Positions 1 through 48,267 of a stretch of DNA of 64,000 nucleotides are shown one piece after another. Positions within the stretch are counted from its first letter, which is position 1. Every line of letters starts with the position of its first letter. Below the pieces are notes generated by a model. It saw only the letters and a program-made list of their open reading frames with translations, was not told the DNA's origin and searched no databases. A program made the translations under genes and the position numbers. Origin of the DNA: an uncultured Coxiellaceae bacterium (GTDB lineage: Bacteria > Myxococcota_A > Polyangia > Polyangiales > Houyiibacteriaceae); NCBI GenBank assembly GCA_964194675.1, contig CAXMND010000064.1, forward strand, positions 33,809-97,808. Reading direction: 5' to 3'.

Positions 1-1
1 G

Positions 2-1024
2 TACCGCTTCGTCTGGGAAGGTCGCCTCTGGCTGCAAGGGTACAACCCCTACCGCCTCGCCCCCGCGGATCCCGCGCTCGAGCCACTGCGAGACGAAGTC
101 TGGGCGGCGATCAACAACAAGTCCCTTGCGAGCGTTTACCCCCCGCTATCTCAGGCTCTGTTCGTCCTGGTCGCGCTGATTGGCGGCGGGATCTGGACGG
201 TGAAGCTCATCGCTCTCACCGCTCACGTCGTCACTACCGTCGTGGTCTCAAGGGTTTCTCCCGATCCGCGCGCTCCTCTTGCTCTCGCGCTCAATCCCCT
301 CCTCTTGAGCGAAGGCGCTCTCAACGGGCACCTCGACCTGCTCATCGGTCTCGCCCTGCTGGTCGCGGCGTGGGCCCTGTCGCGACACCGGATTGTGAGG
401 GCCGCGATCGCCGCCTGCGTTGCCGTGGGCCTCAAAGCGGTGGGTATGGTCATGATGCCTCTCTTCGTTCGTCGTCCGATCGCCCTCTCGGCTGTCGTGG
501 CGGTATCGGCCTTTGTTTTGTCACCGCTGGTGGCCTACCGACCGTTTGCGGATACCGCTTCGGGCCCCCTGCAGTTCGCGGCTCGCTGGCGCGGGAATGA
601 AAGCATCTACGCGGTTATCGAGTGGATGAGCCGTCAGGTCGTCGAGGAAAGCGTCGCGATCACTGTGGCCCGCGCAAGCGTGGTCGGGGTTGTGCTCGCC
701 GTCGGAGCGATCTCGGTCGCAAAGCGCATCCCTCCGCTTCGTGCCACGCGCATCATCCTGTGGACGACCCTGCTCCTTTCACCTCAAGTTCACCCTTGGT
801 ATCTCGCCTGGTTGCTGCCGATCGAGATCGTGGCTGGCGGTCTCGCCGGCTTGGTGTGGAGCGCGAGCATCCTTTGCGCCTATGCTCCGCTCGATCGCTG
901 GCTCGCTGAGGGGGTGTGGGAGATGCCGATCGCGCTTCAGGTCTTCGAGTACTCGGCGGTCGCCCTCGCCCTGGTCGTTGAGGGGCGCCGATCGAGGGCG
1001 CAAGACCCATGGTGGAACAGCTAG
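2..1024 (+). CDS. GT-C-type polytopic membrane glycosyltransferase (DUF2029/GT87-like), 5' end outside window
   Basis: The frame is open from the window edge, with no stop in codons 2-199. The track ORF 200..1024 is only its GTG-initiated tail. Very hydrophobic multi-TM protein. The N-terminal part reads GYNPYRL...SVYPPLSQALF and the C-terminal part reads QVHPWYLAWLLP, motifs I associate with mannosyltransferase-like GT-C enzymes. Family assignment is by eye only. Confidence 0.55.
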   Translation, partial: YRFVWEGRLWLQGYNPYRLAPADPALEPLRDEVWAAINNKSLASVYPPLSQALFVLVALIGGGIWTVKLIALTAHVVTTVVVSRVSPDPRAPLALALNPLLLSEGALNGHLDLLIGLALLVAAWALSRHRIVRAAIAACVAVGLKAVGMVMMPLFVRRPIALSAVVAVSAFVLSPLVAYRPFADTASGPLQFAARWRGNESIYAVIEWMSRQVVEESVAITVARASVVGVVLAVGAISVAKRIPPLRATRIILWTTLLLSPQVHPWYLAWLLPIEIVAGGLAGLVWSASILCAYAPLDRWLAEGVWEMPIALQVFEYSAVALALVVEGRRSRAQDPWWNS

Positions 1025-1157
1025 ATTGATTCATAATTTCAGTATGTTGTCTGTCGCACCGGCCGGTGGTGAGCTCCTCGCTGGGTTTTAGCTTGCAGGG
1101 AGGACACCAGCCCCTAAACTGCGCGGCCCCTGAGTACCAGGGCGTGACGGATTCACC

Positions 1158-1466
1158 ATGTACGCGGTCATTCAAACAGGCGGAAAACAGTATCGCGTCG
1201 CCGAGGGCGACACGATTCGCGTCGAAAAGCTGCTGGGCGACGTGGGCTCCAAAGTGGAGTTCGACGACATCCTGATGGTTGGCGGTGGCAAGGTCGCGGT
1301 GGGCAAGCCCCTTGTCGGTGGCGCCAAGGTCGTAGCCGAAATCACGGCGCAGGACCTTGCCAAGAAAATCATCGTCTTCAAGATGAAGCGCCGAAAGGGC
1401 TATCGTCGTCGACGGGGCCATCGTCAGCCCTACACCGAGCTTCGCATCGACAGCTTGAAAGGGTAG
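1158..1466 (+). CDS. rplU: 50S ribosomal protein L21
   Basis: MYAVIQTGGKQYRVAEGDTIRVEKL... is the canonical L21 N-terminus. 102 aa, immediately upstream of L27. Confidence 0.97.
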   Translation: MYAVIQTGGKQYRVAEGDTIRVEKLLGDVGSKVEFDDILMVGGGKVAVGKPLVGGAKVVAEITAQDLAKKIIVFKMKRRKGYRRRRGHRQPYTELRIDSLKG

Positions 1467-1475
1467 GGAAGCGCC

Positions 1476-1736
1476 ATGGCACACAAAAAGGGTCAGGGTT
1501 CAACCCGCAACGGGCGCGATTCGCAGCCCCAGTACCGGGGAGTCAAGGCATTCGGTGGGCAGACCGTGTCCGCTGGTAGTATCTTGGTTCGTCAGGTCGG
1601 TCAGTCTTTTCACCCCGGCGAGAATGTCGGTGTCGGGAAGGACTACACGTTGTGGGCCAAGGTTGACGGCGTGGTGAAGTTCGAGCGCCGCGGCCGAACG
1701 GGCAAGCGTGTGAGCGTCTATCCCGTCAACGGTTGA
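1476..1736 (+). CDS. rpmA: 50S ribosomal protein L27
   Basis: [29 protein letters not shown]...FHPGENVG is canonical L27. It lies 9 nt after rplU. Confidence 0.97.
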
Positions 1737-1745
1737 GCACTTCCC

Positions 1746-3233
1746 TTGCAGGAGCGGTTCCCGGCGCCGGAATTCCACTCCCCTCGGGGGAGCATCTTTC
1801 CGCCACCCGCGGGACGTCGCGTCTATTGCAATCGCAACTTGAGGCTCGACCAAATCAGCGTGGTCGGCTTCGACATGGACTATACGCTCGCGATCTATCG
1901 CCAAGCGGAAATCGACCGGCTCAGCATCGAAGCAACCCTCGTCAAGCTCGTCGAGCGCGGCTACCCCGAGGAGCTCCTATCGATGAAATACCGGACGGAC
2001 TTTCCCGTTCGAGGCCTGCTGATCGATCGGAAGCTCGGCAATGTGCTCAAGATGGACCGTTACCGTTACGTGAAGACCGCGTACCACGGGTTTCGCAAGC
2101 TCACGCGCGAAGAGCGTCGCCGAGCCTACCACACCCGACGCCTTCGCCCGGGCACGGAGCGCTACCACTGGGTCGACACGCTGTACGCGCTTTCGGAAGT
2201 CGCGGTCTACGCTGCAGTGGTCGATCACTTCGAGAACCGCGGGCGCACCGTCGACTACGGCAAGCTCTTCGCCGATGTCCGAGAGTGTGCGGATATCTCG
2301 CACCAGGACGGATCGATCCTCGACGTGGTTCTCGCGGACCTCCCCAAGTACGTGGAGCCCGATCCTGACATCGGCGTCCTGTTCCACAAGCTCCGCAGTG
2401 CCGGCAAGCGCCTTTTCGTCCTCACCAACTCAGGACCCGAATACACCAGCGCCATGATGTCGCATCTCCTCGATGACGCGCTTGACGAGTACCCCAGCTG
2501 GAGAAACTATTTCGACTACGTCATGACGGCCGCGAAGAAGCCGAGTTTTTTTACGGGCAACGCTCCCTTCGTCGACTTCGAAACCGAGGAAGAGACCACG
2601 AAGCCCAAACGCGGGCGAGTCTACTTGGGGGGCAACATCGCCGCTCTTCGACGCACCCTCGCCGTGCCAGGAGACGAGGTGCTCTACGTCGGTGACCACA
2701 TCTACGGCGACGTTCTTCGCGCCAAGAAGGAATCCGCGTGGCGCACCGCAATGATCATTCAAGAGATGGATGACGAGCTGCGGACTTTGCGCGAGCACGC
2801 GGTCAGCTTCGAACGCCACGATGCTCTCGAGGAGATGCGTATAGCGGTGCAGGACGAGCTCAGAGAGAATCAAGCGCGCTTGAAGGAAGTCGAGCGAGCG
2901 CTCAACAGCGACGCCCCGAACTCTCCCAAGCCGGCGCTCGAGGCCCAGCGATCTCGCCACCGTCGCTCGATCGACCGCCTTCGGGCCCAACTCCGCGATC
3001 TCGACGCGGAGAGCTCCGCCCTGAACGACACCCTCGACGAGGCTTTCCACCCGTTCTGGGGTTCCAGCTTCAAGGCGGGCAACGAGATCTCGAGCTTCGG
3101 CAACCAAGTCGAACAGTACGCGTGCCTCTATACGTCACGCGCCACGAACTTCACGCAATACTCGCCAATGCACTACTTCGAGAGCCCCAGGCACCGGATG
3201 GCGCATGAAGCGGGCACGAGCCCCGGCGCGTAG
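1746..3233 (+). CDS. HAD-IG family 5'-nucleotidase (cytosolic cN-II-like)
   Basis: RVYCNRNLRLDQISVVGFDMDYTLAIY carries HAD motif I (DxDxT). Also present: ...LFVLTNSGPEYT... and ...LYVGDHIYGDVLRAKK... The overall layout matches the 5'-nucleotidase (PF05761-type) family. Only a TTG start is available, 10 nt after the rpmA stop. Confidence 0.8.
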   Translation: MQERFPAPEFHSPRGSIFPPPAGRRVYCNRNLRLDQISVVGFDMDYTLAIYRQAEIDRLSIEATLVKLVERGYPEELLSMKYRTDFPVRGLLIDRKLGNVLKMDRYRYVKTAYHGFRKLTREERRRAYHTRRLRPGTERYHWVDTLYALSEVAVYAAVVDHFENRGRTVDYGKLFADVRECADISHQDGSILDVVLADLPKYVEPDPDIGVLFHKLRSAGKRLFVLTNSGPEYTSAMMSHLLDDALDEYPSWRNYFDYVMTAAKKPSFFTGNAPFVDFETEEETTKPKRGRVYLGGNIAALRRTLAVPGDEVLYVGDHIYGDVLRAKKESAWRTAMIIQEMDDELRTLREHAVSFERHDALEEMRIAVQDELRENQARLKEVERALNSDAPNSPKPALEAQRSRHRRSIDRLRAQLRDLDAESSALNDTLDEAFHPFWGSSFKAGNEISSFGNQVEQYACLYTSRATNFTQYSPMHYFESPRHRMAHEAGTSPGA

Positions 3234-3245
3234 CAGCGGCGGGGA

Positions 3246-3330
3246 CAGACAGCGTCAGCGCCAGTGTCAGCGCCAGCGCCAGTGCCAGCGCCCCCAGTGT
3301 CAGTGCCAGCGCCCGTGTCAGCGTCCATGT
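3246..3330. repeat. Period-6 tandem array, CAGYGY type (array 1)
   Basis: CAGA CAGCGT CAGCGC CAGTGT CAGCGC CAGCGC CAGTGC CAGCGC (CCC) CAGTGT CAGTGC CAGCGC CCGTGT CAGCGT CCATGT. Starts 13 nt after the 5'-nucleotidase stop and is intergenic. Confidence 0.9.
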
Positions 3331-3348
3331 GATCATTCTTGGGTCGCC

Positions 3349-3423
3349 GTGATTTCCTTTCTGAGCGGCTCGGCCCCCCCTCCCGTTTGTGAGGGGACCC
3401 GATCCACTCAGAAAGGAAATCAC
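3349..3423 (+). promoter_or_regulatory. 75-nt rod-like leader hairpin sequestering the SD of the first 4HB gene
   Basis: A perfect 17-bp outer stem pairs GTGATTTCCTTTCTGAG (3349-3365) with CTCAGAAAGGAAATCAC (3407-3423). An inner 7-bp helix with one mismatch pairs GGCTCGG with CCGATCC. The apical stem is CCCCTC(8 nt)GAGGGG (3377-3396). The 3' arm contains the AAAGGAAAT Shine-Dalgarno region and ends 2 nt before the ATG at 3426. Confidence 0.75.
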
Positions 3424-3425
3424 TC

Positions 3426-3752
3426 ATGGGACTCATCGTTCAACAGAAAGCACTTCAGGCAGCGAGGGGGCTTCAGCCTCTTCTGCCCATCATCAGGAAG
3501 CGCGACAAGGACCTCTTCGACCAGGTTCGGAGGGCTATGAATAGCGTCGTTCTCAATATTGCCGAGGCTGATGGAAATGACTCGGGGACGGCGAGAGCTC
3601 GCTTTGCGACTGCGTGTGGCTCAGCCAAGGAAGTCCGTGTGGGGCTCCAGCTTGCCGCAGCCTACGGCTACATCGGCCAAACCCGATTGGCGGAAGTGGA
3701 CATCGCGCTCGATGAGGTCTGCGCGATGTCCTGGAGGCTGTCGGGCCGTTAG
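3426..3752 (+). CDS. Four-helix-bundle protein (23S rRNA intervening-sequence protein / Avd-like family)
   Basis: 108 aa. The core DQVRRAMNSVVLNIAEADGNDSGTARARFATACGSAKEVRVGLQLA matches the pattern I know for the PF05635/TIGR02436-type 4HB family. The SD is inside the upstream hairpin. Confidence 0.8.
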   Translation: MGLIVQQKALQAARGLQPLLPIIRKRDKDLFDQVRRAMNSVVLNIAEADGNDSGTARARFATACGSAKEVRVGLQLAAAYGYIGQTRLAEVDIALDEVCAMSWRLSGR

Positions 3753-4081
3753 CCCCTCCGAGCCAAGCACCACGTAATGGCACACACCTCGTCGAGTTTC
3801 TCGTCGAGGTGGGTCGCCGTCTGTGCCTCGATGTACCCCCAGTCGCTTGCCACATCGAGTGCCGCCCGAACTTCCTTCGCGGACCCACACGCGGTGGCAA
3901 AGCGCGCCCGCGCATTCCCCGCATCACTCCCCCGAGCTTCCGCGATATTGAGGACCACACTCTGCGCAGCCCTCTTGAGCTGGTCTGCAAGCACCCGATC
4001 TCGTCCCTGCACCACCCGGAGGAGCGGAGCGAGCTCCCGCACAACCTTTCGGGCTCGGATGTAAACGTTAGTGGATTGCAT
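3749..4081 (-). CDS. Four-helix-bundle protein, paralog of the adjacent gene
   Basis: 110 aa. The core DQLKRAAQSVVLNIAEARGSDAGNARARFATACGSAKEVRAALDVA is nearly identical to its neighbour. AAGGAG lies 6 nt before the ATG. Its stop codon overlaps the stop of the + strand gene (TTAG at 3749-3752). Confidence 0.8.
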   Translation of the reverse strand: MQSTNVYIRARKVVRELAPLLRVVQGRDRVLADQLKRAAQSVVLNIAEARGSDAGNARARFATACGSAKEVRAALDVASDWGYIEAQTATHLDEKLDEVCAITWCLARRG

Positions 4082-4087
4082 TTTGTA

Positions 4088-4153
4088 CTCCTTGATTTGG
4101 GTTTGGGCCCCGTTGGCCTCACCCCGCTGTGGTCACAAACCCAAATCAAGGAG
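4088..4153 (-). promoter_or_regulatory. 66-nt leader hairpin sequestering the SD of the second 4HB gene
   Basis: A perfect 18-bp stem pairs CTCCTTGATTTGGGTTTG (4088-4105) with CAAACCCAAATCAAGGAG (4136-4153), with a 30-nt loop. On the minus-strand mRNA the 3' arm carries AAGGAG followed by TACAAAATG. Confidence 0.75.
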
Positions 4154-4156
4154 CGC

Positions 4157-4252
4157 CAGCGCCAGCGCCAGCGCCAGCGCCAGCGCCAGTGCCAGCGCCA
4201 GTGCCAGCGCCAGCGCCAGTGCCAGCGCCAGTGCCAGCGCCAGCGCCAGTGC
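4157..4252. repeat. Period-6 tandem array, CAGYGC type, 16 perfect units (array 2)
   Basis: (CAGCGC)x5, then two copies of the 30-nt block CAGTGC CAGCGC CAGTGC CAGCGC CAGCGC (4187-4216 and 4217-4246), then CAGTGC. Verified against the AS- and PA/PV-repeat translations in the ORF track. Confidence 0.95.
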
Positions 4253-4338
4253 CGGGCGCGGGTCCTTCAGGTGTTTTTTTTGTTCCCACGAGCCCGCTCT
4301 TGTCTATACTGCTGTCGCTAACGGAAGAGGAGCGCGAC

Positions 4339-4629
4339 ATGGCCAAAGCAGTAACGAAGAAGCGAACCACCAAGAAGGCCGCGAAGAAGCGAGCCGCGCC
4401 GAAGAAGGCCGCCAAGAAACGCGCGAGTAGCGCCGCTAAGCGCGCGAGAGCTGAAGTGGACGCATTGAGGAAGAGGGCCACCAAAGAGCTCGCCGCTCTC
4501 AGGAAGAAGCTCGACAAGGCAAGGCGGGACGCAAAGAAAGAAACGGCTGCCCTCAAAAAGAAGCTCACCGCCGCAACAAAGACGCTTCAAAAGAAAACAA
4601 AGAAAAAGCGACCCGCCAAGAAGAAGTAG
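4339..4629 (+). CDS. Lys/Ala-rich histone H1-like nucleoid-associated protein
   Basis: MAKAVTKKRTTKKAAKKRAAPKKAAKKRASS...KKTKKKRPAKKK. 96 aa, with KKAA-type basic repeats flanking a coiled-coil-like core (AEVDALRKRATKELAALRKKLDKARRDAKKE). GGAAGAGGAG lies 6-15 nt before the ATG. The upstream part of track ORF 4129..4629 is just the hexamer array read as PAPAPV. Confidence 0.6.
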   Translation: MAKAVTKKRTTKKAAKKRAAPKKAAKKRASSAAKRARAEVDALRKRATKELAALRKKLDKARRDAKKETAALKKKLTAATKTLQKKTKKKRPAKKK

Positions 4630-4719
4630 ACGCGCGGTAACGTCCAGCGACTGCGCCAGCGTGAACTCCAGGGGGGATGCTTGCGAAGCGGCACACAGGT
4701 GCTAAGTCGGGCTCCCCTT

Positions 4720-4792
4720 GGGGCGGTAGCTCAGCTGGGAGAGCACTACACTGGCAGTGTAGGGGTCCGGGGTTCGATCCCCCGTCGCTCCA
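4720..4792 (+). tRNA. tRNA-Ala (anticodon GGC)
   Basis: Hand-folded cloverleaf. The acceptor GGGGCGG/TCGCTCC includes the G3:U70 alanine identity pair. D arm GCTC-AGCTGGGA-GAGC. Anticodon arm CTACA-CTGGCAG-TGTAG, with GGC at 4753-4755. T arm CGGGG-TTCGATC-CCCCG. Discriminator A. CCA is not encoded (the sequence continues CCCC). Confidence 0.93.
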
Positions 4793-4803
4793 CCCCATGA
4801 AAC

Positions 4804-4836
4804 CGACGCTTTGCGTCGTCCGGGGGGCAAACCCCC
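4804..4836 (+). terminator. Two tandem GC hairpins just 3' of the tRNA (possible terminator or processing signal)
   Basis: CGACGC-TTT-GCGTCG (4804-4818) and GGGGGG-CAAA-CCCCC (4822-4836). No U-tract follows. Confidence 0.3.
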
Positions 4837-4840
4837 ACGT

Positions 4841-4943
4841 CCACTGGCACTGGCGCTGACACTGGCGCTGGCACTGACACTGGCATTGGCACTGGCGCTG
4901 GAACTGGCACTGACACTGGCGCTGACGCTGGCGCTGAGCACTG
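4841..4943. repeat. Period-6 tandem array, reverse-complement form RCRCTG, 17 units (array 3)
   Basis: CCACTG GCACTG GCGCTG ACACTG GCGCTG GCACTG ACACTG GCATTG GCACTG GCGCTG GAACTG GCACTG ACACTG GCGCTG ACGCTG GCGCTG AGCACTG. Opposite orientation to arrays 1 and 2. Confidence 0.95.
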
Positions 4944-4987
4944 GGACCGTCATCCCAAATTTTGACGTTTCAGGTTGGGGCAGCGAA

Positions 4988-6490
4988 ATGGAGGCGATGC
5001 GCACCGCTGTCCTATGCGCCCTCCTTCTCTCCTCGGCCTGCAGTGCCTATGACGACCTTCGGCTTCTCGATATCGAAGCGATCGAACCGCCGCAAATCGA
5101 GCCAGGAGGGACGCTCCGCATTCACGGAGAGGGCTTTCCGCTTGGGCGCTCCGCTGTCGTGAGCCTTCACGGAACCCTCCATCGACCGGGTGTCCCTGCG
5201 AGCCCCCTCGATGTACGCCTCCGTGCGGAGGTCCAGACCGAGACGCTCATCGAAGTCCCGATCGATGCCGAGTTCATGCGTTCGATCGGTGGTCGCGCCA
5301 CTTTGGAGGGGAGTCTACGGCTCATCTTTCGAGCCGCGAACGATCGCCGCGACGTGTTCGCTGAGCAGCCCGTTCTCGTTGACTTCCTACCCGACACCTC
5401 TGTTCAGCTTCGCACCGAGCCGAACGTGTACGAGCCGGTTCAATCTATCGACGGGCAGCACTTTGGTGTTGCGCTTTCGCGCGAAGAGTCTGGTACGATC
5501 GGTGTCCGCGTTGAGTCCGTCGATCCGCACAGCTTCGCGGCGACACAAGGAGTGCGTCCGGGCGACACCCTGGTTGGCCTCGATGGAATGCGCCTCTACA
5601 GTTGGCGCGATTTCTTCCCCGACCCGAGCCAAACCGAGTCGAGCGTGTGGGTCGCACGACCCGGCTTAGAGGGAGTGCATATGCTGCGCTGGTGGCACGA
5701 GGCGACCGAGCGTCGGGCCGATCCGCTGACGTTCGGCGTTTTGCTGCTCTTTGGGCTCCTGCTCGGGTGGCTTTCCCCGATGGCGCTCCGGCTCGGAAAG
5801 GCACCATCGGCCTCGATCGAGGTCTGGCTGACTCGACTGAGCCTCGTTCTCGTGTTCGTCGCGGCGCTCTTTTGTGCGTCCGCCCTGCAGTGGACGACGA
5901 TCTGGATCCTGGTCCTCGGATCGCTGGCCGCGCTCTTTTCGCTCGCCGCGCGAGACCGGGTTGCCATCACGAGCTTCGCGTTTGCCGTCCTCTCGACCCT
6001 CACGGTCATGCTCCTGGCTCGTACCGCAAGCATCGCGTCCATCGTAGCGGCCCAAGATGGGACGGTGCTCGATTGGTATCTTTTTCGGACGCCGGCGTCG
6101 ACCCTCGCCTTTGGTAGCTATCTCTACGCGCTCGGTGAGCTCGGCGGTCAGAACCGCCTCTCGGCCTCCCTCTATGCGTCCGCCGCCGCGGTTCTCGGAG
6201 CGGCGCTCTTCCTCGGTGGTTGGGAAACCACAGAGCCCGTTTTGGGCGTTTCACTGTTGGTTGCCAAGGCCGGCGCCATACTTCTAGGTGCGCGCTTCTT
6301 TCGGATGAGCCGCCAAGTCGCCATCTCGGCGTTGGGCCTCGGGCTCTCGCTTGCCCTCCTCGGAGCGTGGGCGGGTACCGACGTGCTGCTCTCCTATTGG
6401 AGCGCGCTCGCCGCGGGCTGCGTCGGGGCGGTGCTAGTCCGAGCAATCGTGCCGGCTTTGCACCGACCGTCGGTTCCTGCGGTCGCCTAG
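4988..6490 (+). CDS. Membrane lipoprotein with extracytoplasmic IPT-like and PDZ-like regions and a polytopic C-terminal domain
   Basis: I take the start at ATG 4988 (MEAMRTAVLCALLLSSAC, lipobox-like LSSAC). The upstream 59 codons of the track ORF are the hexamer array read as LALALT. QIEPGGTLRIHGEGFPLG looks IPT/TIG-like, and QGVRPGDTLVGLDGMRLYSWRDF looks PDZ-like. The last ~270 aa are multi-TM. Function unknown. Confidence 0.5.
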   Translation: MEAMRTAVLCALLLSSACSAYDDLRLLDIEAIEPPQIEPGGTLRIHGEGFPLGRSAVVSLHGTLHRPGVPASPLDVRLRAEVQTETLIEVPIDAEFMRSIGGRATLEGSLRLIFRAANDRRDVFAEQPVLVDFLPDTSVQLRTEPNVYEPVQSIDGQHFGVALSREESGTIGVRVESVDPHSFAATQGVRPGDTLVGLDGMRLYSWRDFFPDPSQTESSVWVARPGLEGVHMLRWWHEATERRADPLTFGVLLLFGLLLGWLSPMALRLGKAPSASIEVWLTRLSLVLVFVAALFCASALQWTTIWILVLGSLAALFSLAARDRVAITSFAFAVLSTLTVMLLARTASIASIVAAQDGTVLDWYLFRTPASTLAFGSYLYALGELGGQNRLSASLYASAAAVLGAALFLGGWETTEPVLGVSLLVAKAGAILLGARFFRMSRQVAISALGLGLSLALLGAWAGTDVLLSYWSALAAGCVGAVLVRAIVPALHRPSVPAVA

Positions 6491-6515
6491 CAGCGGAACC
6501 GTCCTAAGATCTTCC

Positions 6516-6890
6516 CTACGTCTGCGCTAAGAAATCTCGCAAGAGGGTCCGCTGCTGTTCCGATGGCGCCAAGAACTGCAATCCGGCAGTGACCGCGTCC
6601 TGGCCCGCGCGCTTCGTCCATCGCACCGATGCTGCGCATTCGAACGGCGCGCGGTCGGGATCTTCGATCCCATCTTGCGTCAAGAAGAAGCTCACCGTTA
6701 CCACTTCACCGACCGTCAGGGCCCTCGAGAACAACACCGCGGCACCTCCGGTGCTCAGATTCTGGGTCTCCGCGTGGAGGGTTTCGCCCGAGAGCGTGAG
6801 TTCGCAGGAGATCCGGATCGGGTAGCGCTCGTCCTCCCGCTTCTGAGGGTGAGTCTCCATCACTTCCTCATGATGAAGAAGACGGGCCAC
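6516..6890 (-). CDS. PilZ domain protein (c-di-GMP binding type)
   Basis: The RxxxR motif (RYPIR) and N-x-S-x-x-G motif (NLSTGG) sit at the canonical spacing. 124 aa, single domain. Confidence 0.75.
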   Translation of the reverse strand: MARLLHHEEVMETHPQKREDERYPIRISCELTLSGETLHAETQNLSTGGAAVLFSRALTVGEVVTVSFFLTQDGIEDPDRAPFECAASVRWTKRAGQDAVTAGLQFLAPSEQQRTLLRDFLAQT

Positions 6891-6923
6891 GTCGCAAAAT
6901 TGTGTGCACTACTCCGAACCGGT

Positions 6924-7475
6924 TTATTGGACAGATCGCCGTGCTCGACTCTGCGAGCGGACCGTGTTGGCTTCTCCGCGGAGCTCGGGATCGTTGGGCG
7001 TATCGCGCAATAGGTTCGCGTAGATGGCCAGCGAGCGCTTGTAATGGCCCTGGTCCGCCAAGATGCGGGCCATCGTGCGCGTCGGGAACGGCTCTTCGAA
7101 TGTGAAGTACGAGCCCGAAAAGACCCCTGCTGGCGGGCGTGAAGGGGGCGCCGAGCTTGGCGTTTTCGGAGGCGGTGCGGCGCCCGAAGGCGCGTCGGAG
7201 GGGGGCGCGAAGTGCTTCGTGTCGGCCTGCGCGGACTCGCCTTCCGGCTCGGCGTCCGAAAGCTGTTCGTCGGGCGTTGCGGTGGTTTGGAGAGCCCACT
7301 TGGCGAAGCCCAGCACGCGACCGAGGAACCCTTCCGGCGGAGGCCCCCCGACCCGGTCGCGGATCACGTGTATCAGCTGAGCCCGGCTCAATGCGTACGT
7401 GTCGTTCACGCCCAGCCGCTCCGCCTCCGCGCGAAGCTCAGGTGTGGTCAGATTGTAGAGCTTCGTCAGATCCAT
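6924..7475 (-). CDS. Hypothetical protein with Rho_N/SAP-like N-terminus, Pro-rich linker and TPR-like C-terminus
   Basis: MDLTKLYNLTTPELRAEAERLGVNDTYALSRAQLIHVI resembles the Rho N-terminal helix-hairpin motif. The C-terminus reads ARILADQGHYKRSLAIYANLL. It overlaps the ribF stop by 10 nt, so it is probably co-transcribed. Confidence 0.45.
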   Translation of the reverse strand: MDLTKLYNLTTPELRAEAERLGVNDTYALSRAQLIHVIRDRVGGPPPEGFLGRVLGFAKWALQTTATPDEQLSDAEPEGESAQADTKHFAPPSDAPSGAAPPPKTPSSAPPSRPPAGVFSGSYFTFEEPFPTRTMARILADQGHYKRSLAIYANLLRDTPNDPELRGEANTVRSQSRARRSVQ

Positions 7476-8395
7476 CGAGCCAGTTCCAGGTCCATCTCTT
7501 CTAGCGCGTTCTTCGCCTGCTCGCAGTCACGATCGATCTGATCGCGCAATTCCTGCAAACCGCCGAACCTATGCTCACCGCGAATGCGCGAGACGAAACC
7601 GACGCGGAGTCTCCTGCCGTAGAGATTCCCCTCGAAGTTGAAGAAATGTGGCTCGACCGAGCGGCCCGCGTCGAACGTTGGGCGCACGCCGAGGTTCGCG
7701 ACCCCATGGAGTAAGGGGGCATCCGCCTCGTCGAGCACCCGGGCGACGACCGAATAAACCCCATCTTTGGGCAGTTGCAGTGGTTCGACATCGAGATTCG
7801 CGGTGGGGAAGCCGATTTCTCGACCGCGCTGGTCTCCTCGGACGACTGTGCCGGCTACCTCGTGGACGCGGGTCATCATCAAGGCGGCGTCCTCTACGTT
7901 TCCGTCTTCCTTGAGGATCCGGCGGATACGAGTCGAAGAGATGGACTCACCCTCGTGCATGACGGGTTCGACCACCTCGACTGTGAATCCGACGCGCTCC
8001 CCCCATTCGCGCAGGGTGACGATGTTCCCGGATCGTTTGTGCCCAAAGTGAAAATCCGGTCCAATGACGACGCCCTTTGCGCAACACGCGTCCAGTAGCA
8101 CGCGCTCGACGAAGGCGTCTGGGGTGGTTTTCGCGAAGTCTGCATCGAACGGCAAAACAACCACATCATCACACCCCGCCCCCTTCAATAAGTCGACACG
8201 GCGAGGCATACCCGTGAGCAAGACCGGTGAGCGGTCGGGTGCCAGGATCGAGGTCGGATGCGGGTCGAAGCACATCGCTAGGGTTTGCCAACCATGCTCG
8301 TCGGCCGTGCGTTTTGCGGCGTCGATCAGCGCCCTGTGACCAAGGTGTACGCCATCGTGGTTGCCAGGGGTAACGACAGAAGGTGCTCGGCGCAT
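7466..8395 (-). CDS. ribF: Bifunctional riboflavin kinase / FMN adenylyltransferase
   Basis: VVTPGNHDGVHLGHRALI is the nucleotidyltransferase motif. The C-terminal riboflavin kinase region reads GFPTANL...GVANLGVRPTF. 309 aa. Confidence 0.95.
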   Translation of the reverse strand: MRRAPSVVTPGNHDGVHLGHRALIDAAKRTADEHGWQTLAMCFDPHPTSILAPDRSPVLLTGMPRRVDLLKGAGCDDVVVLPFDADFAKTTPDAFVERVLLDACCAKGVVIGPDFHFGHKRSGNIVTLREWGERVGFTVEVVEPVMHEGESISSTRIRRILKEDGNVEDAALMMTRVHEVAGTVVRGDQRGREIGFPTANLDVEPLQLPKDGVYSVVARVLDEADAPLLHGVANLGVRPTFDAGRSVEPHFFNFEGNLYGRRLRVGFVSRIRGEHRFGGLQELRDQIDRDCEQAKNALEEMDLELARWI

Positions 8396-8518
8396 CGGTT
8401 CAGGGGGGCGTGGAGCGGTGAACGTGCTCCGCCTTCAAGCACCTACAGCGCCCTCGGGGGCACTTCAACTCGAATGCGGTCGATACGCACGTTGGTGACG
8501 TTCGCCTTTCGGTGGGGT

Positions 8519-8797
8519 ATGGTTGAAAACATGAGGAATTCGAAGGGGAGGTCGAATCCCAAGGAAGAGGCTCCTTTTGAGGAAGTCATGGAGCGCCTCC
8601 AGACCGTTGTGGAGCAGCTCGAAGAGGGAGATTTGCCTCTCGAGCAGTCTTTGGCGATCTTTGAGGAGGGGGTTCGTTTGTCTCGCGCCGGTGCGAAACG
8701 ACTCGATGAGGCCGAGCGTAGGGTAGAGGAGCTCCTAGCCGCCGGAGACGAATTGCAGACCAACCCTCTGGAAGAAAGCGAAGCGGGGGAAGCATGA
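8519..8797 (+). CDS. xseB: Exodeoxyribonuclease VII small subunit
   Basis: PFEEVMERLQTVVEQLEEGDLPLEQSLAIFEEGVRLSRAGAKRLDEAERRVEEL is a typical XseB. The start is ATG 8519 or 8531. The longer track ORF from 8285 runs antisense over the ribF 5' end and is rejected. Confidence 0.85.
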   Translation: MVENMRNSKGRSNPKEEAPFEEVMERLQTVVEQLEEGDLPLEQSLAIFEEGVRLSRAGAKRLDEAERRVEELLAAGDELQTNPLEESEAGEA

Positions 8798-9960
8798 GCC
8801 AGGTCCTCACAGTACCGACACATTTCAACGATATTGGAGAGCTCTCCGAGGGCTTTCTCGACCGCGTCGAACAAGACACGCTCATTCTCTATGGGCCTGT
8901 TCCCTACGAAGACGGGTCCGACATCGACTTTGTGGTTTTGCTCGCGGATGGCACTACGGCCCTCGAAGGCAGCGGCCGGGTCCGTGCGGCGGTCGATGGT
9001 GGCGCCGAACGTGTTCCCGAGACTCGCTACGACGTGGTCCTAGAGGCGCTCGAGCTGGACGGTCGCTATGAAGTCGTCTTCGAGCGTCTCGTGATGGAGC
9101 GGCAGGCGGTCTCGGATCGTGCACCTGCCGAAGACGACGCGCCCGCCACGGGCGACATGGAGGCGACGCCCCCGGACGAAACAGACGACGGGAACGAAGC
9201 CGAAGAAGCGGCGGCCCCCGAGGTCAAGATCGCCGCCGAGGAAGTCTACTCCATACCCCCCGACGAAATCTTGTCCGTCCCGCCGGGCGACCTTGAAGAC
9301 GTGGAGTCTGCCGAAGAAGCCGAAGTTGCCGAAGAGGACGACGACGAGATGGAAATGAAGATGTCCGTCGAAGAGGCATCGGTCGACGACGCCACCGATT
9401 GGGACAAAGAATCGCCGGTCGAGCTTTCGATGGACGCACAAGCCACGCTCGAGAAGTACGCAGGCTCACACGAGGAGCAGGGTCCCGTCGGAGAGGCCTA
9501 CGACGAGGCCACTGCTTCCGAAGGGACATTCGAAGGAGCGTTGCAGGCTGAGTTCGATGAGGACGGCGAGCCGCTCGTGGCCGCTGAGCCCAATGTCGGC
9601 GCTCCGGTTCCAAAGCCTTCGATGGCCGCGCCGCCGGAGGTGCCCCCAGCACCAGCTGGTCTCGACTTCGTTCCGCCCCCAGACGGGCTCACGCGGCCTT
9701 CGCGAGCCAGCGCAAACGAAGACCTGATCGCCAGCTATGAAACGGCCGGGGAGGAAGAGAACTCGGGTCTTTTCGAGTACGAAGAAGGGCTCCCGATTCC
9801 ATCACGGCCGCCGCTCCCCGACCTAGACCCAGCGCGCCGCGTCGCCGCGGTTGAAGCAAACGATGTCGAAGACGTCGAAGACTCGGAGCCACCCGAGGCC
9901 GATGACGACTACGAGGAAATTCGACTCAGCGACCTTGCTGAAAGCGCCGAAGAGGGGTGA
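8794..9960 (+). CDS. Hyper-acidic low-complexity protein with a ~110-aa structured N-terminal domain
   Basis: Its ATG overlaps the xseB stop (ATGA). 388 aa, with long D/E/P/A-rich tracts after residue ~110. No family recognised. Confidence 0.5.
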   Translation: MSQVLTVPTHFNDIGELSEGFLDRVEQDTLILYGPVPYEDGSDIDFVVLLADGTTALEGSGRVRAAVDGGAERVPETRYDVVLEALELDGRYEVVFERLVMERQAVSDRAPAEDDAPATGDMEATPPDETDDGNEAEEAAAPEVKIAAEEVYSIPPDEILSVPPGDLEDVESAEEAEVAEEDDDEMEMKMSVEEASVDDATDWDKESPVELSMDAQATLEKYAGSHEEQGPVGEAYDEATASEGTFEGALQAEFDEDGEPLVAAEPNVGAPVPKPSMAAPPEVPPAPAGLDFVPPPDGLTRPSRASANEDLIASYETAGEEENSGLFEYEEGLPIPSRPPLPDLDPARRVAAVEANDVEDVEDSEPPEADDDYEEIRLSDLAESAEEG

Positions 9961-9966
9961 CGTCTC

Positions 9967-10281
9967 ATGAGACCCTTCGTTGCCGCCATCCTGTGCGCTT
10001 TGAGCCTACTGGTCACGACACATGCGAGCGCTGATGCGGTGGTCCACGTCATCGTACGCAATATCGACGAGCAGCCGGTCGACGGCCTCGTCAAGCTCAG
10101 GCCACTCGGTGACGGCAAGAGCTTCAACTGCTCAACCGTCAAGGGTGCCTGCACGATGCGCTCGGTCCCGGGCGGCAGCTACATCGTCACCTTCCAGCCC
10201 AGCAAGGGGAGCTCCCCCACCCCCCGCAAGGTCATGATTCCGCCTGACGGCGAAGCAGACCTTCATATCTCGGCGAAATAG
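9967..10281 (+). CDS. Small secreted protein, carboxypeptidase-regulatory-like beta-sandwich
   Basis: Signal peptide MRPFVAAILCALSLLVTTHASA. VVHVIVRNIDEQPVDGLVKL...SVPGGSYIVTF fits the CarboxypepD_reg pattern. Confidence 0.5.
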   Translation: MRPFVAAILCALSLLVTTHASADAVVHVIVRNIDEQPVDGLVKLRPLGDGKSFNCSTVKGACTMRSVPGGSYIVTFQPSKGSSPTPRKVMIPPDGEADLHISAK

Positions 10282-10346
10282 CGCCGGAGTTGGACCCGGG
10301 CGCCCTCAGAATGTAATCATTTCGAGCGGGGAAGCTCGCGAAGGGG

Positions 10347-12359
10347 ATGCGAAGTAGCCGGATACTGTCCTGCCTGGCAGGGATTGTCGTGTTGGGGTGC
10401 GCGGTGTTCGTTCGTGCGGATGGCGATCGACCTGACGCCGGGACGCGCGACGACCAGCTGCTTCTCTCCCAGAACAGTTTTAGCGGGCCTACCGGTGGCA
10501 TCCGCGTCGTCGATGCGTCCTCCGGCCCGAAAGGCACCTTCCGGCTTGCGCTGAACACCGAGTTCTTCCTCATTCGGGACTACTTCGTCCCGAATGACAG
10601 GACGCAGCACTTTGCCGGCAACCTTTCGCTGAGCGTGACTGCGACCGACTACCTCGAAGTGTTCGCATCGGCCGAGGTCACGTCGGCTTGGGACAATTCG
10701 ACCGATCCGATGTTGGTGCAGCGCGTGGCCGACGCCTTGATCGGGCTCAAAGGCTATCACTGGGTCAAGCCCTGGGTCGCGCTCGGCGGCGATGCGAGCA
10801 TTGGGTTCCCAGGCGGCGTAGGCGACATGAAAGCAACGTTTCGAGCCACGAGCGTCGGGCTTCGCGTGAATGCGACCCTCGACTTCCGAACGTATCACCG
10901 TCGCAAGCTGCCGCTGATCACGAGGCTCAATGGGCAATACTGGTTCGACAACTCGGCGAAGCTCACCGGGAGTATCGGTACCGAGGGTCCGCTCACTCCT
11001 TTTGAACGCTTCGCTTACGGGATCAACGAAACCGACACGTTCCGGATCGGTGCGGGGGTCGAGGCGCCGCTCGAAGCCGGCAAAGTGGGCCTCCATCCCC
11101 TGCTCGACTGGCGTTGGGACATTCCCGTCAATCGACAAGATTTCCAGTGTGCCTCGGCGAGCCTCCCCGGTGGCGACAACTGTCTCTCCGACGTCGGGGT
11201 CAAAGCGTATCCGATGACCCTGACGATCGGCCTACGCGTGTATACGCCTCCCAAAGGGCTGACGTTCACGGTCGCTGCAGACGTCGGCCTCACTGGCACA
11301 AGCGATTTCGTGCGCGAGCTCGCTCCGAATGCGCCCTACAACATCCTCTTCGGCATCGCCTACGCTGTGGATCCGCGTCCCCGTCATGTCTCGGAGGAGC
11401 CGGTGACCGTGCCGGCGCCGCGCGTACCAGCCGCCGAGGGCCGCGTTTACGGCTTCGTGGTTGACGCGCACAGCGACCAGGCTGTCGCGAACGCCCGTGT
11501 CACGGTGGTCGGACAGAAGCCGTCCCCCCAGACCAGTGACGACGACGGACGCTTCATCACTTATGCGGTCCCAGTCGGCGAGGTTACCCTCGAGGTCAGT
11601 CATTCCGAGTATGAACCCACGGAGTGCCTCGCATCGTTTGTAGAGCCCGATCCCTTGGAGGAGATCGAGCCAATCGCTGAGGTGATCTGCCGGATGACTC
11701 CGAGCAGCCTGGAAGGCGGTCTCCGGATCACCGTCGTCGGCAAGAAGGGCAGGCCCGTTCCAGCCGTTGCGGTCACCATACGCGGTCCTTCCGACCATAG
11801 GCTGGTGTCCGACGACACCGGACAGGCTTTCGTCGAGCTTCCGGCCGGGCGATACACCGCCTACATCGACGACCCCGCGTATCTCGTCGCGGTGAGTGAC
11901 GTCGCGGTCGCCCCCCGCGAGGAAGCCATGCTGACGCTCAAGATCTTGCCGAAGCCATCCCGCCCGCGGGTCATAGTGCGGGGCCAGCGGATCATTCTCC
12001 GCAGTCAGGTGAGCTTCGCCACCGGAAGCAACGAGATCCTGCCGAACAGCGAGCCCTTGCTCCTCGAGGTCGCCGACGTCTTGCTCCGTGACCCTTCTCT
12101 CGAGCTCATCGAGATTCAGGGCCACACCGACAATCGCGGCGAGCGAGAGCTCAACATGAAGCTATCGCAGAGCCGTGCCGAGGCCGTACGGGAGTGGTTG
12201 GTCGGGCACGGCGTCGAGCCCGCGCGACTGATCGCTAAAGGCTACGGCCCGACCCGTCCGATCGTGCCCAACATCACCGCGCATAACCGCGCCCGCAACC
12301 GCCGGGTTCAGTTCACGATTGTGCGTCGCGCTGGAGCGAGCGCCGCCGCAACACCGTGA
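10347..12359 (+). CDS. OmpA-family outer-membrane protein
   Basis: Signal peptide, then a beta-rich N-terminal half with internal CarboxypepD_reg-like repeats (GRVYGFVVDAHSDQAVANARVTV...). The C-terminal OmpA_C domain reads IEIQGHTDNRGERELNMKLSQSRAEAVREWL...RNRRVQFTIV. Confidence 0.85.
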   Translation: MRSSRILSCLAGIVVLGCAVFVRADGDRPDAGTRDDQLLLSQNSFSGPTGGIRVVDASSGPKGTFRLALNTEFFLIRDYFVPNDRTQHFAGNLSLSVTATDYLEVFASAEVTSAWDNSTDPMLVQRVADALIGLKGYHWVKPWVALGGDASIGFPGGVGDMKATFRATSVGLRVNATLDFRTYHRRKLPLITRLNGQYWFDNSAKLTGSIGTEGPLTPFERFAYGINETDTFRIGAGVEAPLEAGKVGLHPLLDWRWDIPVNRQDFQCASASLPGGDNCLSDVGVKAYPMTLTIGLRVYTPPKGLTFTVAADVGLTGTSDFVRELAPNAPYNILFGIAYAVDPRPRHVSEEPVTVPAPRVPAAEGRVYGFVVDAHSDQAVANARVTVVGQKPSPQTSDDDGRFITYAVPVGEVTLEVSHSEYEPTECLASFVEPDPLEEIEPIAEVICRMTPSSLEGGLRITVVGKKGRPVPAVAVTIRGPSDHRLVSDDTGQAFVELPAGRYTAYIDDPAYLVAVSDVAVAPREEAMLTLKILPKPSRPRVIVRGQRIILRSQVSFATGSNEILPNSEPLLLEVADVLLRDPSLELIEIQGHTDNRGERELNMKLSQSRAEAVREWLVGHGVEPARLIAKGYGPTRPIVPNITAHNRARNRRVQFTIVRRAGASAAATP

Positions 12360-13272
12360 CCGCTAGCAAGGCGAGAAGAAGCGCTCCCCAGGGGGACTCG
12401 CCAGAGCTGACTCTTGCTGCCGAGCAGCCCCCGCTGGAGGGGATCGGAGTCGGATCGGTGCAGTTTGGGGGACCATCGTTTTCGCAGTTGAGATCCAAGC
12501 CACCGACGACATCGGGGTTGCACGAATCATCGAGACTACCCGGCGGATAGATCGCGCACACCGCGCGGATGTCGTCCTGCTCAAGCGTTCGCTTCGACAC
12601 TTCAGTGCGTGCCGAGGACGGAGCCATGGTGGCGCCGTCGACGTTGGAATGGCCGATACCGATGAAGTGTCCGACTTCGTGCGTCACGATGCTCTGCAAG
12701 TCCACCGGGCCCGGGTTGCCGGTCGTGCCGGGCTCGCATCCCGATTCCGAACAGCGCTCATAGGGGCCCAGGAGATCGTTGATCATCATGTCGGCATCGA
12801 AAATCTCACCGGTTGAGGTGTTGTGCCAAACGATGGTGACGGCGAACGCGTTCGGCGAGTACTCGCTGCCGCATTGGTCTTCCCAGGGATCGAGAAATGC
12901 GATCGTGTTGACGTTGCCGCTCTCTCGGAACTCCGCTCGCTGGCACGTCGACGAGTTGAGTGGCTTGAAAATCAAGTCGACGGGTTCTCCGTCGCAGGTC
13001 TCGTTTTGCCACGTGTTGAAGGAGGTATCGACCACCTGCTCGACGTCGCTGAATGGCATCCAGCTGCTGCCGCGTCGATCGATGGCATACGAAAGACATG
13101 CGACGGGCCACTCGAGAAACTCGCCGCGCTCGAGGCAGATCTGGTTGCCAACTTGGGTGCCGCCGTCGGTCGTCATTCGGCAAAATGCCGAGGCGTGGCC
13201 GGCCGTCAGCGCCGCGACCAACATCAGCCCGATCGCGAGCGCGAGAAGAACACGGCTACTCAAGGGTCCCAC
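12313..13272 (-). CDS. Secreted matrixin-type (M10-like) zinc metalloprotease with MYXO-CTERM-like tail
   Basis: HEVGHFIGIGHS is the HExxHxxGxxH motif, followed by a Met-turn (GATMAP). N-terminal signal peptide. The C-terminus GGCSAARVSSGESPWGALLLALLAVTVLRRRS has a Cys, a hydrophobic helix and an Arg cluster. The last 47 nt overlap the convergent OmpA gene. Confidence 0.8.
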   Translation of the reverse strand: MGPLSSRVLLALAIGLMLVAALTAGHASAFCRMTTDGGTQVGNQICLERGEFLEWPVACLSYAIDRRGSSWMPFSDVEQVVDTSFNTWQNETCDGEPVDLIFKPLNSSTCQRAEFRESGNVNTIAFLDPWEDQCGSEYSPNAFAVTIVWHNTSTGEIFDADMMINDLLGPYERCSESGCEPGTTGNPGPVDLQSIVTHEVGHFIGIGHSNVDGATMAPSSARTEVSKRTLEQDDIRAVCAIYPPGSLDDSCNPDVVGGLDLNCENDGPPNCTDPTPIPSSGGCSAARVSSGESPWGALLLALLAVTVLRRRSLQRDAQS

Positions 13273-13855
13273 CCGCTTGCTCTCGCACGATCGTGCTTAC
13301 TCTCTCGAGGAAGGCTTTCAGTCGCTCCTTGCGAGGGAGGGCGCCGGGGCTCCGTTTGAGCAGGCCGTCCGCACCGCGCCGCACTAGAAGCAAACCCTCA
13401 CGGCTCTGGAAGACGGTTTCGTCTCCTGCGTCCATCCGAATGCGCATCACGCCCTGCGCCATTCCAACCGGCCGAAACGCGAGCTGGTTGCCCTCTCGCA
13501 TGAAGATGACTGCGCGCTCGCCGACCGAGAACGTCGGCTCTCCCTCGACGCGCATGCCGAGGTCTCCGATCTGCCCTCCGAGCACCTGGATGATCACCTC
13601 GGGCTCATCGTCCTTGGTCGGGGCGTCACCTCGCAGCTCACGCTCGACCTCGACGCGATACCAAGTGGCGATGGTGCCATCGCCACGCTGAAAGGCCTCG
13701 GCGAGAACCACCCGCCCGACGACGATCCGGTCGGACTGTGCAACGAGCTCCGACAGGTCTAGGGCCTGAACGATGGACCCATTGGCGGGGCTAGCCGTAA
13801 TTAGGGCGGCGAGCAGAACCGCGCACAGTCCCAAGAGCGCTCTGAATCTAAGCAT
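13256..13855 (-). CDS. Secreted hypothetical protein, co-transcribed with the matrixin
   Basis: Signal peptide MLRFRALLGLCAVLLAALITASPANG. 199 aa. Its stop overlaps the matrixin start by 17 nt. No family recognised. Confidence 0.5.
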   Translation of the reverse strand: MLRFRALLGLCAVLLAALITASPANGSIVQALDLSELVAQSDRIVVGRVVLAEAFQRGDGTIATWYRVEVERELRGDAPTKDDEPEVIIQVLGGQIGDLGMRVEGEPTFSVGERAVIFMREGNQLAFRPVGMAQGVMRIRMDAGDETVFQSREGLLLVRRGADGLLKRSPGALPRKERLKAFLERVSTIVREQAGGTLE

Positions 13856-13915
13856 TTTCTAACCCTGCAGTCCTCACCCAGGGTCGTCAAGCGATCGGGA
13901 TCACGACGATCTCAA

Positions 13916-13945
13916 TTGACAATTTCGTCCGAGTCTTCGTACACC
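13916..13945 (+). promoter_or_regulatory. Candidate sigma70-type promoter giving a near-leaderless tatT mRNA
   Basis: Perfect TTGACA (13916-13921), an 18-nt spacer, then TACACC (13940-13945). The tatT ATG at 13953 lies only ~7 nt downstream and has no SD. The -10 element is weak. Confidence 0.25.
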
Positions 13946-13952
13946 TGTTCCC

Positions 13953-14882: not shown

Positions 14883-15034
14883 TGATCTCAGGGTATAAAT
14901 GGGGATTGGCGAAAGACCTAACAGTTTTCGTTGACTCAGAGCCTGATCCTGAGTGAATGTTCGGCTTCCTCGAGCCGTATTAATCGATGGGGTCTGACCC
15001 TACGGGCCCCGTCTCCGGCTCGAGCGAGGCAAAG

Positions 15035-41192: not shown

Positions 41193-41207
41193 GCGGGAAG
41201 GGTAGGA

Positions 41208-41237
41208 CAGCGACAGCGACAGTGCCAGTGTCATGCT
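41208..41237. repeat. Short period-6 array, CAGYGN type (array 5)
   Basis: CAGCGA CAGCGA CAGTGC CAGTGT CATGCT. It lies in the divergent lipoprotein/GST intergenic region. Confidence 0.7.
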
Positions 41238-48190: not shown

Positions 48191-48267
48191 TGGCTTGCTC
48201 CTTGGAGTTGGTGGGGTCTAGATAGATGGCTCCCTTTCGTGTGCCTCGTCAAGGAGGATTCGAGACA

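Follow-up and report, generated by a model that had tools for sequence, protein, structure and literature searches.

A repeated cassette of convergent four-helix-bundle genes with leader hairpins and hexamer-array borders in an uncultured marine-sediment Polyangiales bacterium

Between a 5'-nucleotidase gene and an H1-like gene of an uncultured marine-sediment member of the Polyangiales (Myxococcota), two small paralogous genes of the four-helix-bundle (4HB) family converge on one another, each led by a long hairpin and bordered by an array of hexamer repeats. The locus raises the question of what kind of genetic unit this is, how its genes would be expressed, and how it came to stand at this place. 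We analyzed it within a window of 64,000 nt, the whole stretch of DNA under study, on which all positions of the locus are counted. The two genes, here called HB1 and HB2, form together with their hairpins and arrays a cassette that recurs in other marine-sediment contigs. Our preferred reading is that of a dispersed, lineage-specific cassette of an Avd-like gene pair, in which double-stranded-RNA (dsRNA) hairpins would gate translation, the arrays would serve recombination, and the proteins would act as nucleic-acid-binding oligomers. We give this reading, taken as a whole, a probability of roughly 0.55.

Alignment with the two closest relatives (86-87% protein identity) showed that the window carries extra DNA from about 3237 to 4265 (Table 1). 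The insertion begins and ends at the outer edges of array 1 and array 2, respectively, and the empty site of one relative, L039, carries two hexamer units. Directly to the right of the insertion, the promoter region of the H1-like gene (GTTTTTTGTTC...TTGTCTATACTG) is conserved; between the end of array 2 and the -35 box lie 30 nt. When species-representative genomes were scanned for the 5'-nucleotidase protein, 80 loci were found, nearly all from uncultured Myxococcota / Polyangiales. In roughly 45 close relatives the genes stand in the order L21, L27, 5'-nucleotidase, H1-like and PDZ, and in none of them does a 4HB gene separate the 5'-nucleotidase gene from the H1-like gene. The 4HB pair is accessory at this site. 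An original prediction for this locus had called for such a synteny comparison, which found the pair absent from that interval in all related genomes examined. With more than 40 relatives lacking the pair here, one gain is a far more parsimonious explanation than repeated loss.

The H1-like gene, the tRNA-Ala gene and the PDZ gene belong to the host backbone, because they keep the same order in relatives without the pair. The position and orientation of tRNA-Ala were checked in seven relatives (L001, L039, L003, L004, L007, L019 and L023), and in all seven it lies between the H1-like and PDZ genes. The cassette is the segment of about 3237-4265, with the layout array / hairpin / HB1 -> <- HB2 / hairpin / array. 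The arrays, the hairpins, HB1 and HB2, their overlap in TTAG, tRNA-Ala and the Lys/Ala-rich open reading frame (ORF) were all found at the positions predicted for them. The cassette is also self-contained, as had been proposed; the H1-like gene, tRNA-Ala and the third array, which the proposal had counted as parts of it, fall outside, the first two being backbone in the relatives. Its supposed mirror symmetry holds for the genes and the hairpins and not for the two flanking arrays, which are direct repeats: on the + strand, each of them reads CAGYGY. The region had further been described as lower in GC than its surroundings. We found a GC content of 0.621 for the region and of 0.637 for the insert alone. 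The window averages 0.618, and the region ranks at the 58th percentile among stretches of equal length; both the GC and the third-codon-position GC (GC3) of the cassette are similar to those of the neighboring genes. A GC or codon anomaly is thus rejected, and the argument from GC for an accessory element fails.

Table 1. Features of the cassette and of the adjoining host DNA, with positions in the window.
Feature	Position	Strand	Remarks
Array 1, left border, about 12-13 imperfect CAGYGY units	3246-3330	+	starts about 13 nt after the 5'-nucleotidase stop; (CAGYGY)n located at 3250-3324
Spacer between array 1 and the HB1 hairpin	3331-3348	+	degenerate copy of the conserved GACTTGGTCATCG motif of other cassettes
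HB1 leader stem-loop	3349-3423	+	-51.8 kcal/mol, z -5.5; covariance-model match 71.9 bits
HB1, 108 aa, four-helix-bundle, pI 9.5	3426-3752	+	PF05635 / TIGR02436
HB2, 110 aa, convergent paralogue of HB1, pI 9.3	3749-4081	-	PF05635 / TIGR02436; AlphaFold2 model
HB2 leader stem-loop	4088-4153	-	z -3.95; covariance-model match 70.4 bits
Array 2, right border, about 16-17 CAGCGC/CAGTGC units	4151-4253	+	abuts the HB2 hairpin directly
H1-like gene, Lys/Ala-rich	4339-4629	+	host, outside the cassette; promoter-like hexamers from 4283 to 4310
Host segment with tRNA-Ala(GGC) at 4719-4795 (+)	4640-4840		outside the cassette; inverted relative to the relatives checked
Array 3, solo, about 17 degenerate units	4841-4944	-	right boundary of the inverted tRNA segment

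A metagenome scan led by HB2 confirmed 218 stretches, and the census of cassettes given here rests on the best 80 of these 218. The module, read as array / hairpin / HB2 followed by HB1 / hairpin / array, recurs in most of the 80 marine-sediment contigs. Among the HB1 and HB2 genes with enough flanking sequence, an array lies within 350 nt upstream of 38 of the 41 HB1 genes and 51 of the 57 HB2 genes, at a median distance of 93-107 nt from the ATG. The arrays comprise 4 to 45 units, and their polarity is fixed in 89/89 cases, with CAGYGY on the coding strand of HB1 and its complement on the coding strand of HB2, so that the two arrays of one cassette are always direct repeats. When the partners of HB2 were classified (n = 61), 43 were full convergent HB1 genes with stops overlapping or abutting and 4 were truncated HB1 genes, the remaining 14 HB2 genes standing without HB1. 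The 97 cassette flanks fell into 69 clusters, placing the cassette at dozens of different sites. The flanks at L124 and L131, inspected by eye, held ordinary ORFs and no obvious mobility gene. A gene common to many flanks was considered and rejected, the single 10-member cluster containing leftover cassette sequence in the two loci inspected.

At one site shared by two loci, L141 carries a full cassette (1658-2696), and L095 carries array / hairpin / HB2 together with about 30 nt of the HB1 3' end (865-1690). After this HB1 stub, L095 continues with about 190 nt of unrelated GC-rich sequence and has no right-hand array. The window ortholog (48226-49770) of the left flanking gene of L141 and L095 has no adjoining cassette, and its other neighbor differs. 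Three copies of the cassette lie within 80 kb on one 736-kb contig with a mutual dS of 0.30-0.47, and the median pairwise nucleotide identity of the HB2 genes is 82%. Judged from this divergence, the cassette family is old, with no sign of recent transposition. The contigs end within 450 nt of the pair in 52 of the 80 cases; as the arrays break short-read assemblies, the loci are probably under-represented in the metagenome-assembled genomes of the clade.

HB1 and HB2 are 55% identical to each other, and their stop codons overlap in TTAG at 3749-3752. In profile searches, they scored 51.6 and 62.8 bits, respectively, against PF05635 (curated cut-off, 33.8 bits) and 51.2 and 60.4 bits against TIGR02436 (curated cut-off, 24 bits), in agreement with the earlier assignment of both ORFs to the 4HB family. 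The AlphaFold2 model of HB2 (pLDDT 93.9) has four helices in an up-down bundle. A Foldseek search with this model returned TM-scores of 0.90 to BT_0352 (2RLD) and 0.81-0.84 to XCC0516 (2GSC), and the sequence of HB2 matched 2GSC with an E-value of 0.006. To Avd of diversity-generating retroelements (DGRs), both free and within the DGR reverse-transcriptase RNA-protein complex, the model showed TM-scores of 0.82-0.85 at a sequence identity of 14-15%. HB1 and HB2 are members of PF05635 / TIGR02436, both by sequence and HB2 also by its predicted fold. Avd forms a pentamer, to which a structured RNA and the reverse transcriptase are bound. The matched PDB entries (2RLD, 2GSC and Avd) each list five chains, A-E, and XCC0516 is called a homopentamer in a title cited in PMC10053308.

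Across the cassette copies, which differ by a dS of about 0.9, HB1 has a dN/dS of 0.10 and HB2 one of 0.08, indicating that both proteins are under purifying selection and are kept functional at every site. HB1 of identical sequence is present at the same locus in three other assemblies, where array 2 has 35-36 units; an exact-sequence look-up of HB2 returned no record. A profile of the pair found no further 4HB gene in the 1.18 Mb searched. PADLOC gave marginal partial matches only, to segments of larger proteins (E-values 0.006 and 0.001), and a search of phage families yielded nothing convincing. An anti-phage defence system or a toxin-antitoxin pair is rejected on the PADLOC result and because the genes are convergent and share no operon. 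The weak partial 4HB matches concerned N-terminal or internal segments of PDLC03166 and PDLC02005 (type I restriction specificity-subunit and SAVED-PDDEXK profiles), which hints that 4HB modules may be fused to some defence proteins.

The two leader hairpins are the top two non-array inverted repeats in the whole 64 kb. The 3' arm of the HB1 hairpin holds the Shine-Dalgarno (SD) sequence AAGGAA and ends 2 nt before the ATG, and the 3' arm of the HB2 hairpin holds the SD sequence CAAGGAG. Neither stem encloses its ORF, the 5' arm as well as the 3' arm being located upstream. We found compensatory changes in 12 of the 23 pairs of the HB1 leader (40 loci) and in 10 of the 22 pairs of the HB2 leader (69 loci), and the anti-SD/SD pairing TCCTTG/CAAGGA of the HB2 leader was invariant (69/69). 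The median uninterrupted Watson-Crick stem is 29 bp in the HB1 leader and 24 bp in the HB2 leader, with median folding energies of -58 and -51 kcal/mol, respectively. Covariance models of the leaders, searched over 534 kb (the window and 39 related genomes), matched only beside 4HB genes. These comparative data indicate that both leader hairpins are functional. Together with the recurrence of the module and the dN/dS values of 0.08-0.10, the compensatory changes speak for the old, maintained arrangement that had been proposed, and not for a recent inverted duplication. The expected association of 4HB genes with both hairpins and arrays was borne out for the hairpins over the 534 kb; the arrays occur also without 4HB genes.

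A motif of about 13 nt (GACTTGGTCATCG) lies just outside both stems and is therefore inverted at the two inner ends of the cassette; in the subgroup to which the window belongs, it is missing on the HB2 side. Several other identities were considered for the hairpins and their surroundings and rejected. A search for a known RNA family returned only sub-threshold microRNA-precursor look-alikes, as happens with any long stem. Neither hairpin was called terminator-like by an intrinsic-terminator scan, which needs a T-run after the stem and merely flagged the array as a stem. A sigma-54 match for the arrays and the spacer showed, as judged by eye, no fit to the consensus.

The 18-nt pattern of three array units occurs 46 times in the window, where 0.02 matches would be expected. 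Array 2 counts 16 units in the window as compared with 35-36 units in L081 (65-280) and L162 (4732-4941), the strains being 99.2% identical, and array 1 has 12 units in the window as compared with 17 in L162; the degenerate array 3 is identical in the window and L162. By this difference in unit number between near-identical strains, the arrays are a hypervariable microsatellite. The length gap of array 2 may be a real population polymorphism, possibly one that alters expression of the H1-like gene, or an assembly collapse in the window. Sequence variation of the arrays consists of C/T transitions and is not adenine-specific. As RNA, array 2 is self-complementary, folding at -71 kcal/mol on the HB2-sense strand and at -48.6 kcal/mol on the other strand.

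Solo arrays are found elsewhere in the window, at 18330-18436 and 41206-41231, and reach up to 32 units in relatives. The one at 18330 starts 6 nt behind the stop codon of a TRAP-transporter DctM gene and is directly followed by a (CGAGCA/CGACCA)n array at 18445-18477. The intergenic region that follows the H1-like gene holds a cassette in L035, a solo array of 32 units in L023 and array 3 in the window; the junctions of this comparison are unaligned, and the window has the intervening tRNA segment. This segment, consisting of tRNA-Ala and its upstream region, is inverted in the window as compared with 7/7 relatives. It is flanked on the left by a degenerate + strand array remnant (about 4644-4666), with 4638-4687 being a 60% member of the array repeat family, and on the right by the - strand array 3. 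These features suggest that the tRNA-Ala segment was inverted by recombination between oppositely oriented arrays.

We propose that the arrays act as recombination-prone microsatellite borders, and that homologous array-array recombination would bring about gain of the cassette, its loss with a solo array left behind, and local inversion, the cassette itself encoding no recombinase. Translation of each 4HB gene would be gated by a dsRNA reader acting on the leader stem, because a stem of -50 to -60 kcal/mol cannot open unaided. The length of the leader stems is that of RNase III substrates and far beyond that of an ordinary translational attenuator. The likeliest reader would be RNase III, as for the intervening sequences (IVSs) of rRNA, with the 4HB proteins themselves as an alternative. 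The genes abut and leave no space for a terminator, so that their transcripts must overlap antisense; a transcript of one gene that reads through the other would then also reach, beyond it, the hairpin of that other gene. HB1 and HB2 would assemble into Avd-like basic oligomers, probably pentameric and possibly mixed, whose ligand would be structured nucleic acid; the most plausible targets would be their own leaders, with autoregulation as the outcome. If the arrays are transcribed, their fixed direct polarity would make the two 5' leaders mutually complementary; such complementarity may be an RNA-level reason for the polarity of the arrays, as an alternative to a DNA-level one.

Several observations weigh against this proposal. 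On the RNA side, the HB2 leader folds equally well on both strands and the HB1 leader slightly better in antisense, and isolated stem mismatches of the antisense-G.U type prevail by 53 to 11, a count not corrected for phylogeny. A sigma-70 consensus scan found no promoter for either 4HB gene, the sole match lying in front of the H1-like gene. Such a hairpin would not fit into the 46 nt upstream of a 4HB gene on a Nostoc plasmid, so that the leader hairpin is not a family-wide trait. On the DNA side, every pair of copies more than 95% identical at the nucleotide level proved to be the same locus. Recent transposition is rejected on this ground, and movement of the cassette must be rare or ancient. 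Among the orthologous sites compared, none showed a cassette in one genome and a solo array in another at exactly the same junction. Finally, the fixed polarity of the arrays would also be expected from site-specific insertion into pre-existing arrays.

This last point leads to the alternative that survives best, which we nevertheless regard as unlikely, namely that the cassette is a non-autonomous mobile element moved in trans by a recombinase or transposase encoded elsewhere. The enzyme would recognize the GACTTGGTCATCG motif at the inner ends or the arrays, and insertion in one orientation would split a (CAGYGY)n array into direct halves. Such an origin would account for the array polarity (89/89) and for the motif inverted at the two inner ends; solo arrays would be potential targets, and both the presence of the cassette at dozens of sites and the differences between orthologous sites in cassette presence fit with it. 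However, Pfam scans of 15 main ORFs between 200 and 18325, ten of them flanking, revealed no transposase, integrase or reverse transcriptase domain out to about 18 kb, and the flanks at L124 and L131 hold ordinary genes. An Rfam scan of the whole window at gathering thresholds found no rRNA, tRNA-Ala being its single match. The claim that the 64 kb contain no rRNA, reverse transcriptase or integrase is thereby confirmed for rRNA over the whole window and, for the two enzymes, within the ORFs scanned. Also against mobilization in trans, near-identical copies are never found at different sites (median identity 82%), the subgroup of the window has no such motif beside the HB2 hairpin, and the inverted motif could be the leftover of an ancient inverted duplication of motif, hairpin and gene.

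It is distinctly unlikely, in our view, that HB1 and HB2 are an ordinary host paralogue family around which generic intergenic microsatellites accumulate, and that the absences of the pair reflect repeated loss. The strong purifying selection, the old copies within one genome, the neighbor-like GC and GC3, the arrays far from any 4HB gene and the lack of recent transposition would all agree with this explanation. Incidental microsatellites, however, are not expected to stand at a fixed distance and polarity beside about 90% of the 4HB genes, nor would the boundaries of the insertion be expected to coincide with arrays, and the more than 40 relatives without the pair at this site favor a single gain.

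We see only a small chance that the cassette is a transposase-free self-propagating element, in which the Avd-like proteins, the dsRNA hairpins and the arrays together copy or home the unit into (CAGYGY)n arrays, either through an RNA intermediate or through protein-stimulated recombination. If this were true, the purifying selection on HB1 and HB2 would serve the spread of the element and not the host, and the large orphan PF05635 family would gain its first function outside DGRs.

A link to retroelements is very improbable. According to this explanation, the Avd-like proteins would be partners of a reverse transcriptase whose gene lies at some other place, hairpins and arrays would serve as template or for priming, and the arrays would stem from reiterative copying. 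Retrons are abundant in myxobacteria, and the predicted fold of HB2 matches Avd in the DGR complex (TM-score 0.81-0.85). PF05635 is moreover the Pfam family most often found beside DGR reverse transcriptases (PMC10053308). On the other hand, the tested ORFs out to about 18 kb hold no reverse transcriptase domain, positions 1-16000 hold no pair of template repeat and variable repeat, identity to Avd is 14-15%, the array variation is of C/T transitions and not adenine-specific, and the copies are old and diverged. A DGR proper is rejected as well, since none of the 15 ORFs encodes a reverse transcriptase and the direct repeats of at least 40 nt in 1-16000 are the hexamer arrays only.

The idea that the cassette is the cargo or relic of a tRNA-proximal genomic-island insertion, suggested by a tRNA-Ala gene about 470 nt away, is contradicted and has virtually no chance of being right, as tRNA-Ala is backbone between the H1-like and PDZ genes in the seven scanned relatives without the pair here, the H1-like gene stands between the tRNA and the cassette, a tRNA is near only 1 of 45 cassette loci, which makes the predicted tRNA link coincidental, and neither an integrase in the scanned ORFs nor a direct repeat of the tRNA 3' end was found.

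Among known systems, the 23S rRNA IVS of Leptospira and Coxiella ('S23p') shares with the cassette the PF05635 family, the form of a small, selfish-looking, recombinase-free unit and a long double-stranded RNA stem. The Coxiella IVS, which carries a gene of the PF05635 family, is excised by RNase III, and its ORF is decaying (PMC4990558). In contrast, the cassette lies outside any rRNA gene, its ORFs are under strong purifying selection, and it has two convergent paralogues in place of one ORF, as well as hexamer-array flanks. Its stems lie wholly upstream of the ORFs and bury the SD sequences, whereas the IVS stem encloses the ORF. An rRNA intervening sequence, an element of helix 25 or 45 of a 23S rRNA gene, is rejected for the window, given the stem arms and the Rfam result. 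With Avd of DGRs, the cassette shares the four-helix-bundle fold, the small basic protein and the five chains in the matched PDB entries; it differs from DGRs in its distant sequence (14-15% identity), in the absence of a nearby reverse transcriptase, template or variable repeat, in its paired, convergent genes, and in being multi-copy and dispersed.

Like REP/BIME sequences, Correia elements and MITEs, the cassette is multi-copy and intergenic, has strong palindromic stems, breaks short-read assemblies and varies in presence between relatives. With respect to the features of MITE and REP elements, the two inner ends of the cassette carry the inverted motif of about 13 nt, its copies are about 82% identical, and none that are near-identical were found at different sites. 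The cassette differs from these elements in that it carries two selected protein genes, its copies are diverged rather than near-identical (median 82%), no transposase of the REP-associated type was seen, and its hairpins overlap the ribosome-binding site. Direct flanking repeats, solo repeats elsewhere, strain-variable repeat number and inversion between opposed copies are shared with solo long terminal repeats (LTRs), IS26 translocatable units and contingency loci; here, however, the repeats are imperfect hexamer microsatellites rather than an insertion sequence (IS) or LTR, and there is no phase-variable reading frame. In excludon-type loci, too, convergent genes stand without intergenic space or terminator, and their transcripts must overlap. 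Here, by contrast, the partners are paralogues from one family, and the arrangement recurs as a cassette, whereas an excludon-type locus is a single regulatory locus.

We found no description of the arrays, the hairpins or the architecture in the open-access full-text literature, and the cassette is apparently undescribed. What is new is the highly stereotyped genetic context, the PF05635 / TIGR02436 protein family itself being known. Proteins of this family are very common in bacterial genomes. To our knowledge, their sole established role is that of Avd in DGRs, and we know of no function for the rRNA-IVS and orphan copies. The cassette places two family members in a stereotyped and strongly selected context, and so may offer a handle on what a large orphan family binds. 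This context consists of a covarying stem of 24-30 bp that would have to be opened or cut before translation, an obligatory antisense overlap of transcripts, and microsatellite borders. It also suggests that gene cassettes may be gained, lost and rearranged through simple-sequence arrays alone.

Some minor observations concern arrays and repeats in the host DNA. If translation of the PDZ gene began at the TTG that opens its longest ORF, the third array would be read as (LA/LT)n (window 4811-4987). However, the array is probably untranslated, because the ATG at 4988, which is followed by a lipoprotein-like signal (…LLLSSAC), is the likelier start. CAGYGY-like runs also occur about 700 nt downstream of the PDZ gene in L006, L009, L017, L021, L027, L034, L037 and L055, at one orthologous position. 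These runs may be coding microsatellites, since the window has at this place, as judged by position, an ORF with a low-complexity linker (6924-7475, - strand). We also noticed tandem repeats of 27/54 nt at 18130-18234, which encode the C-terminal tail of the DctM-family protein as an acidic (D/E)nWDP repeat.

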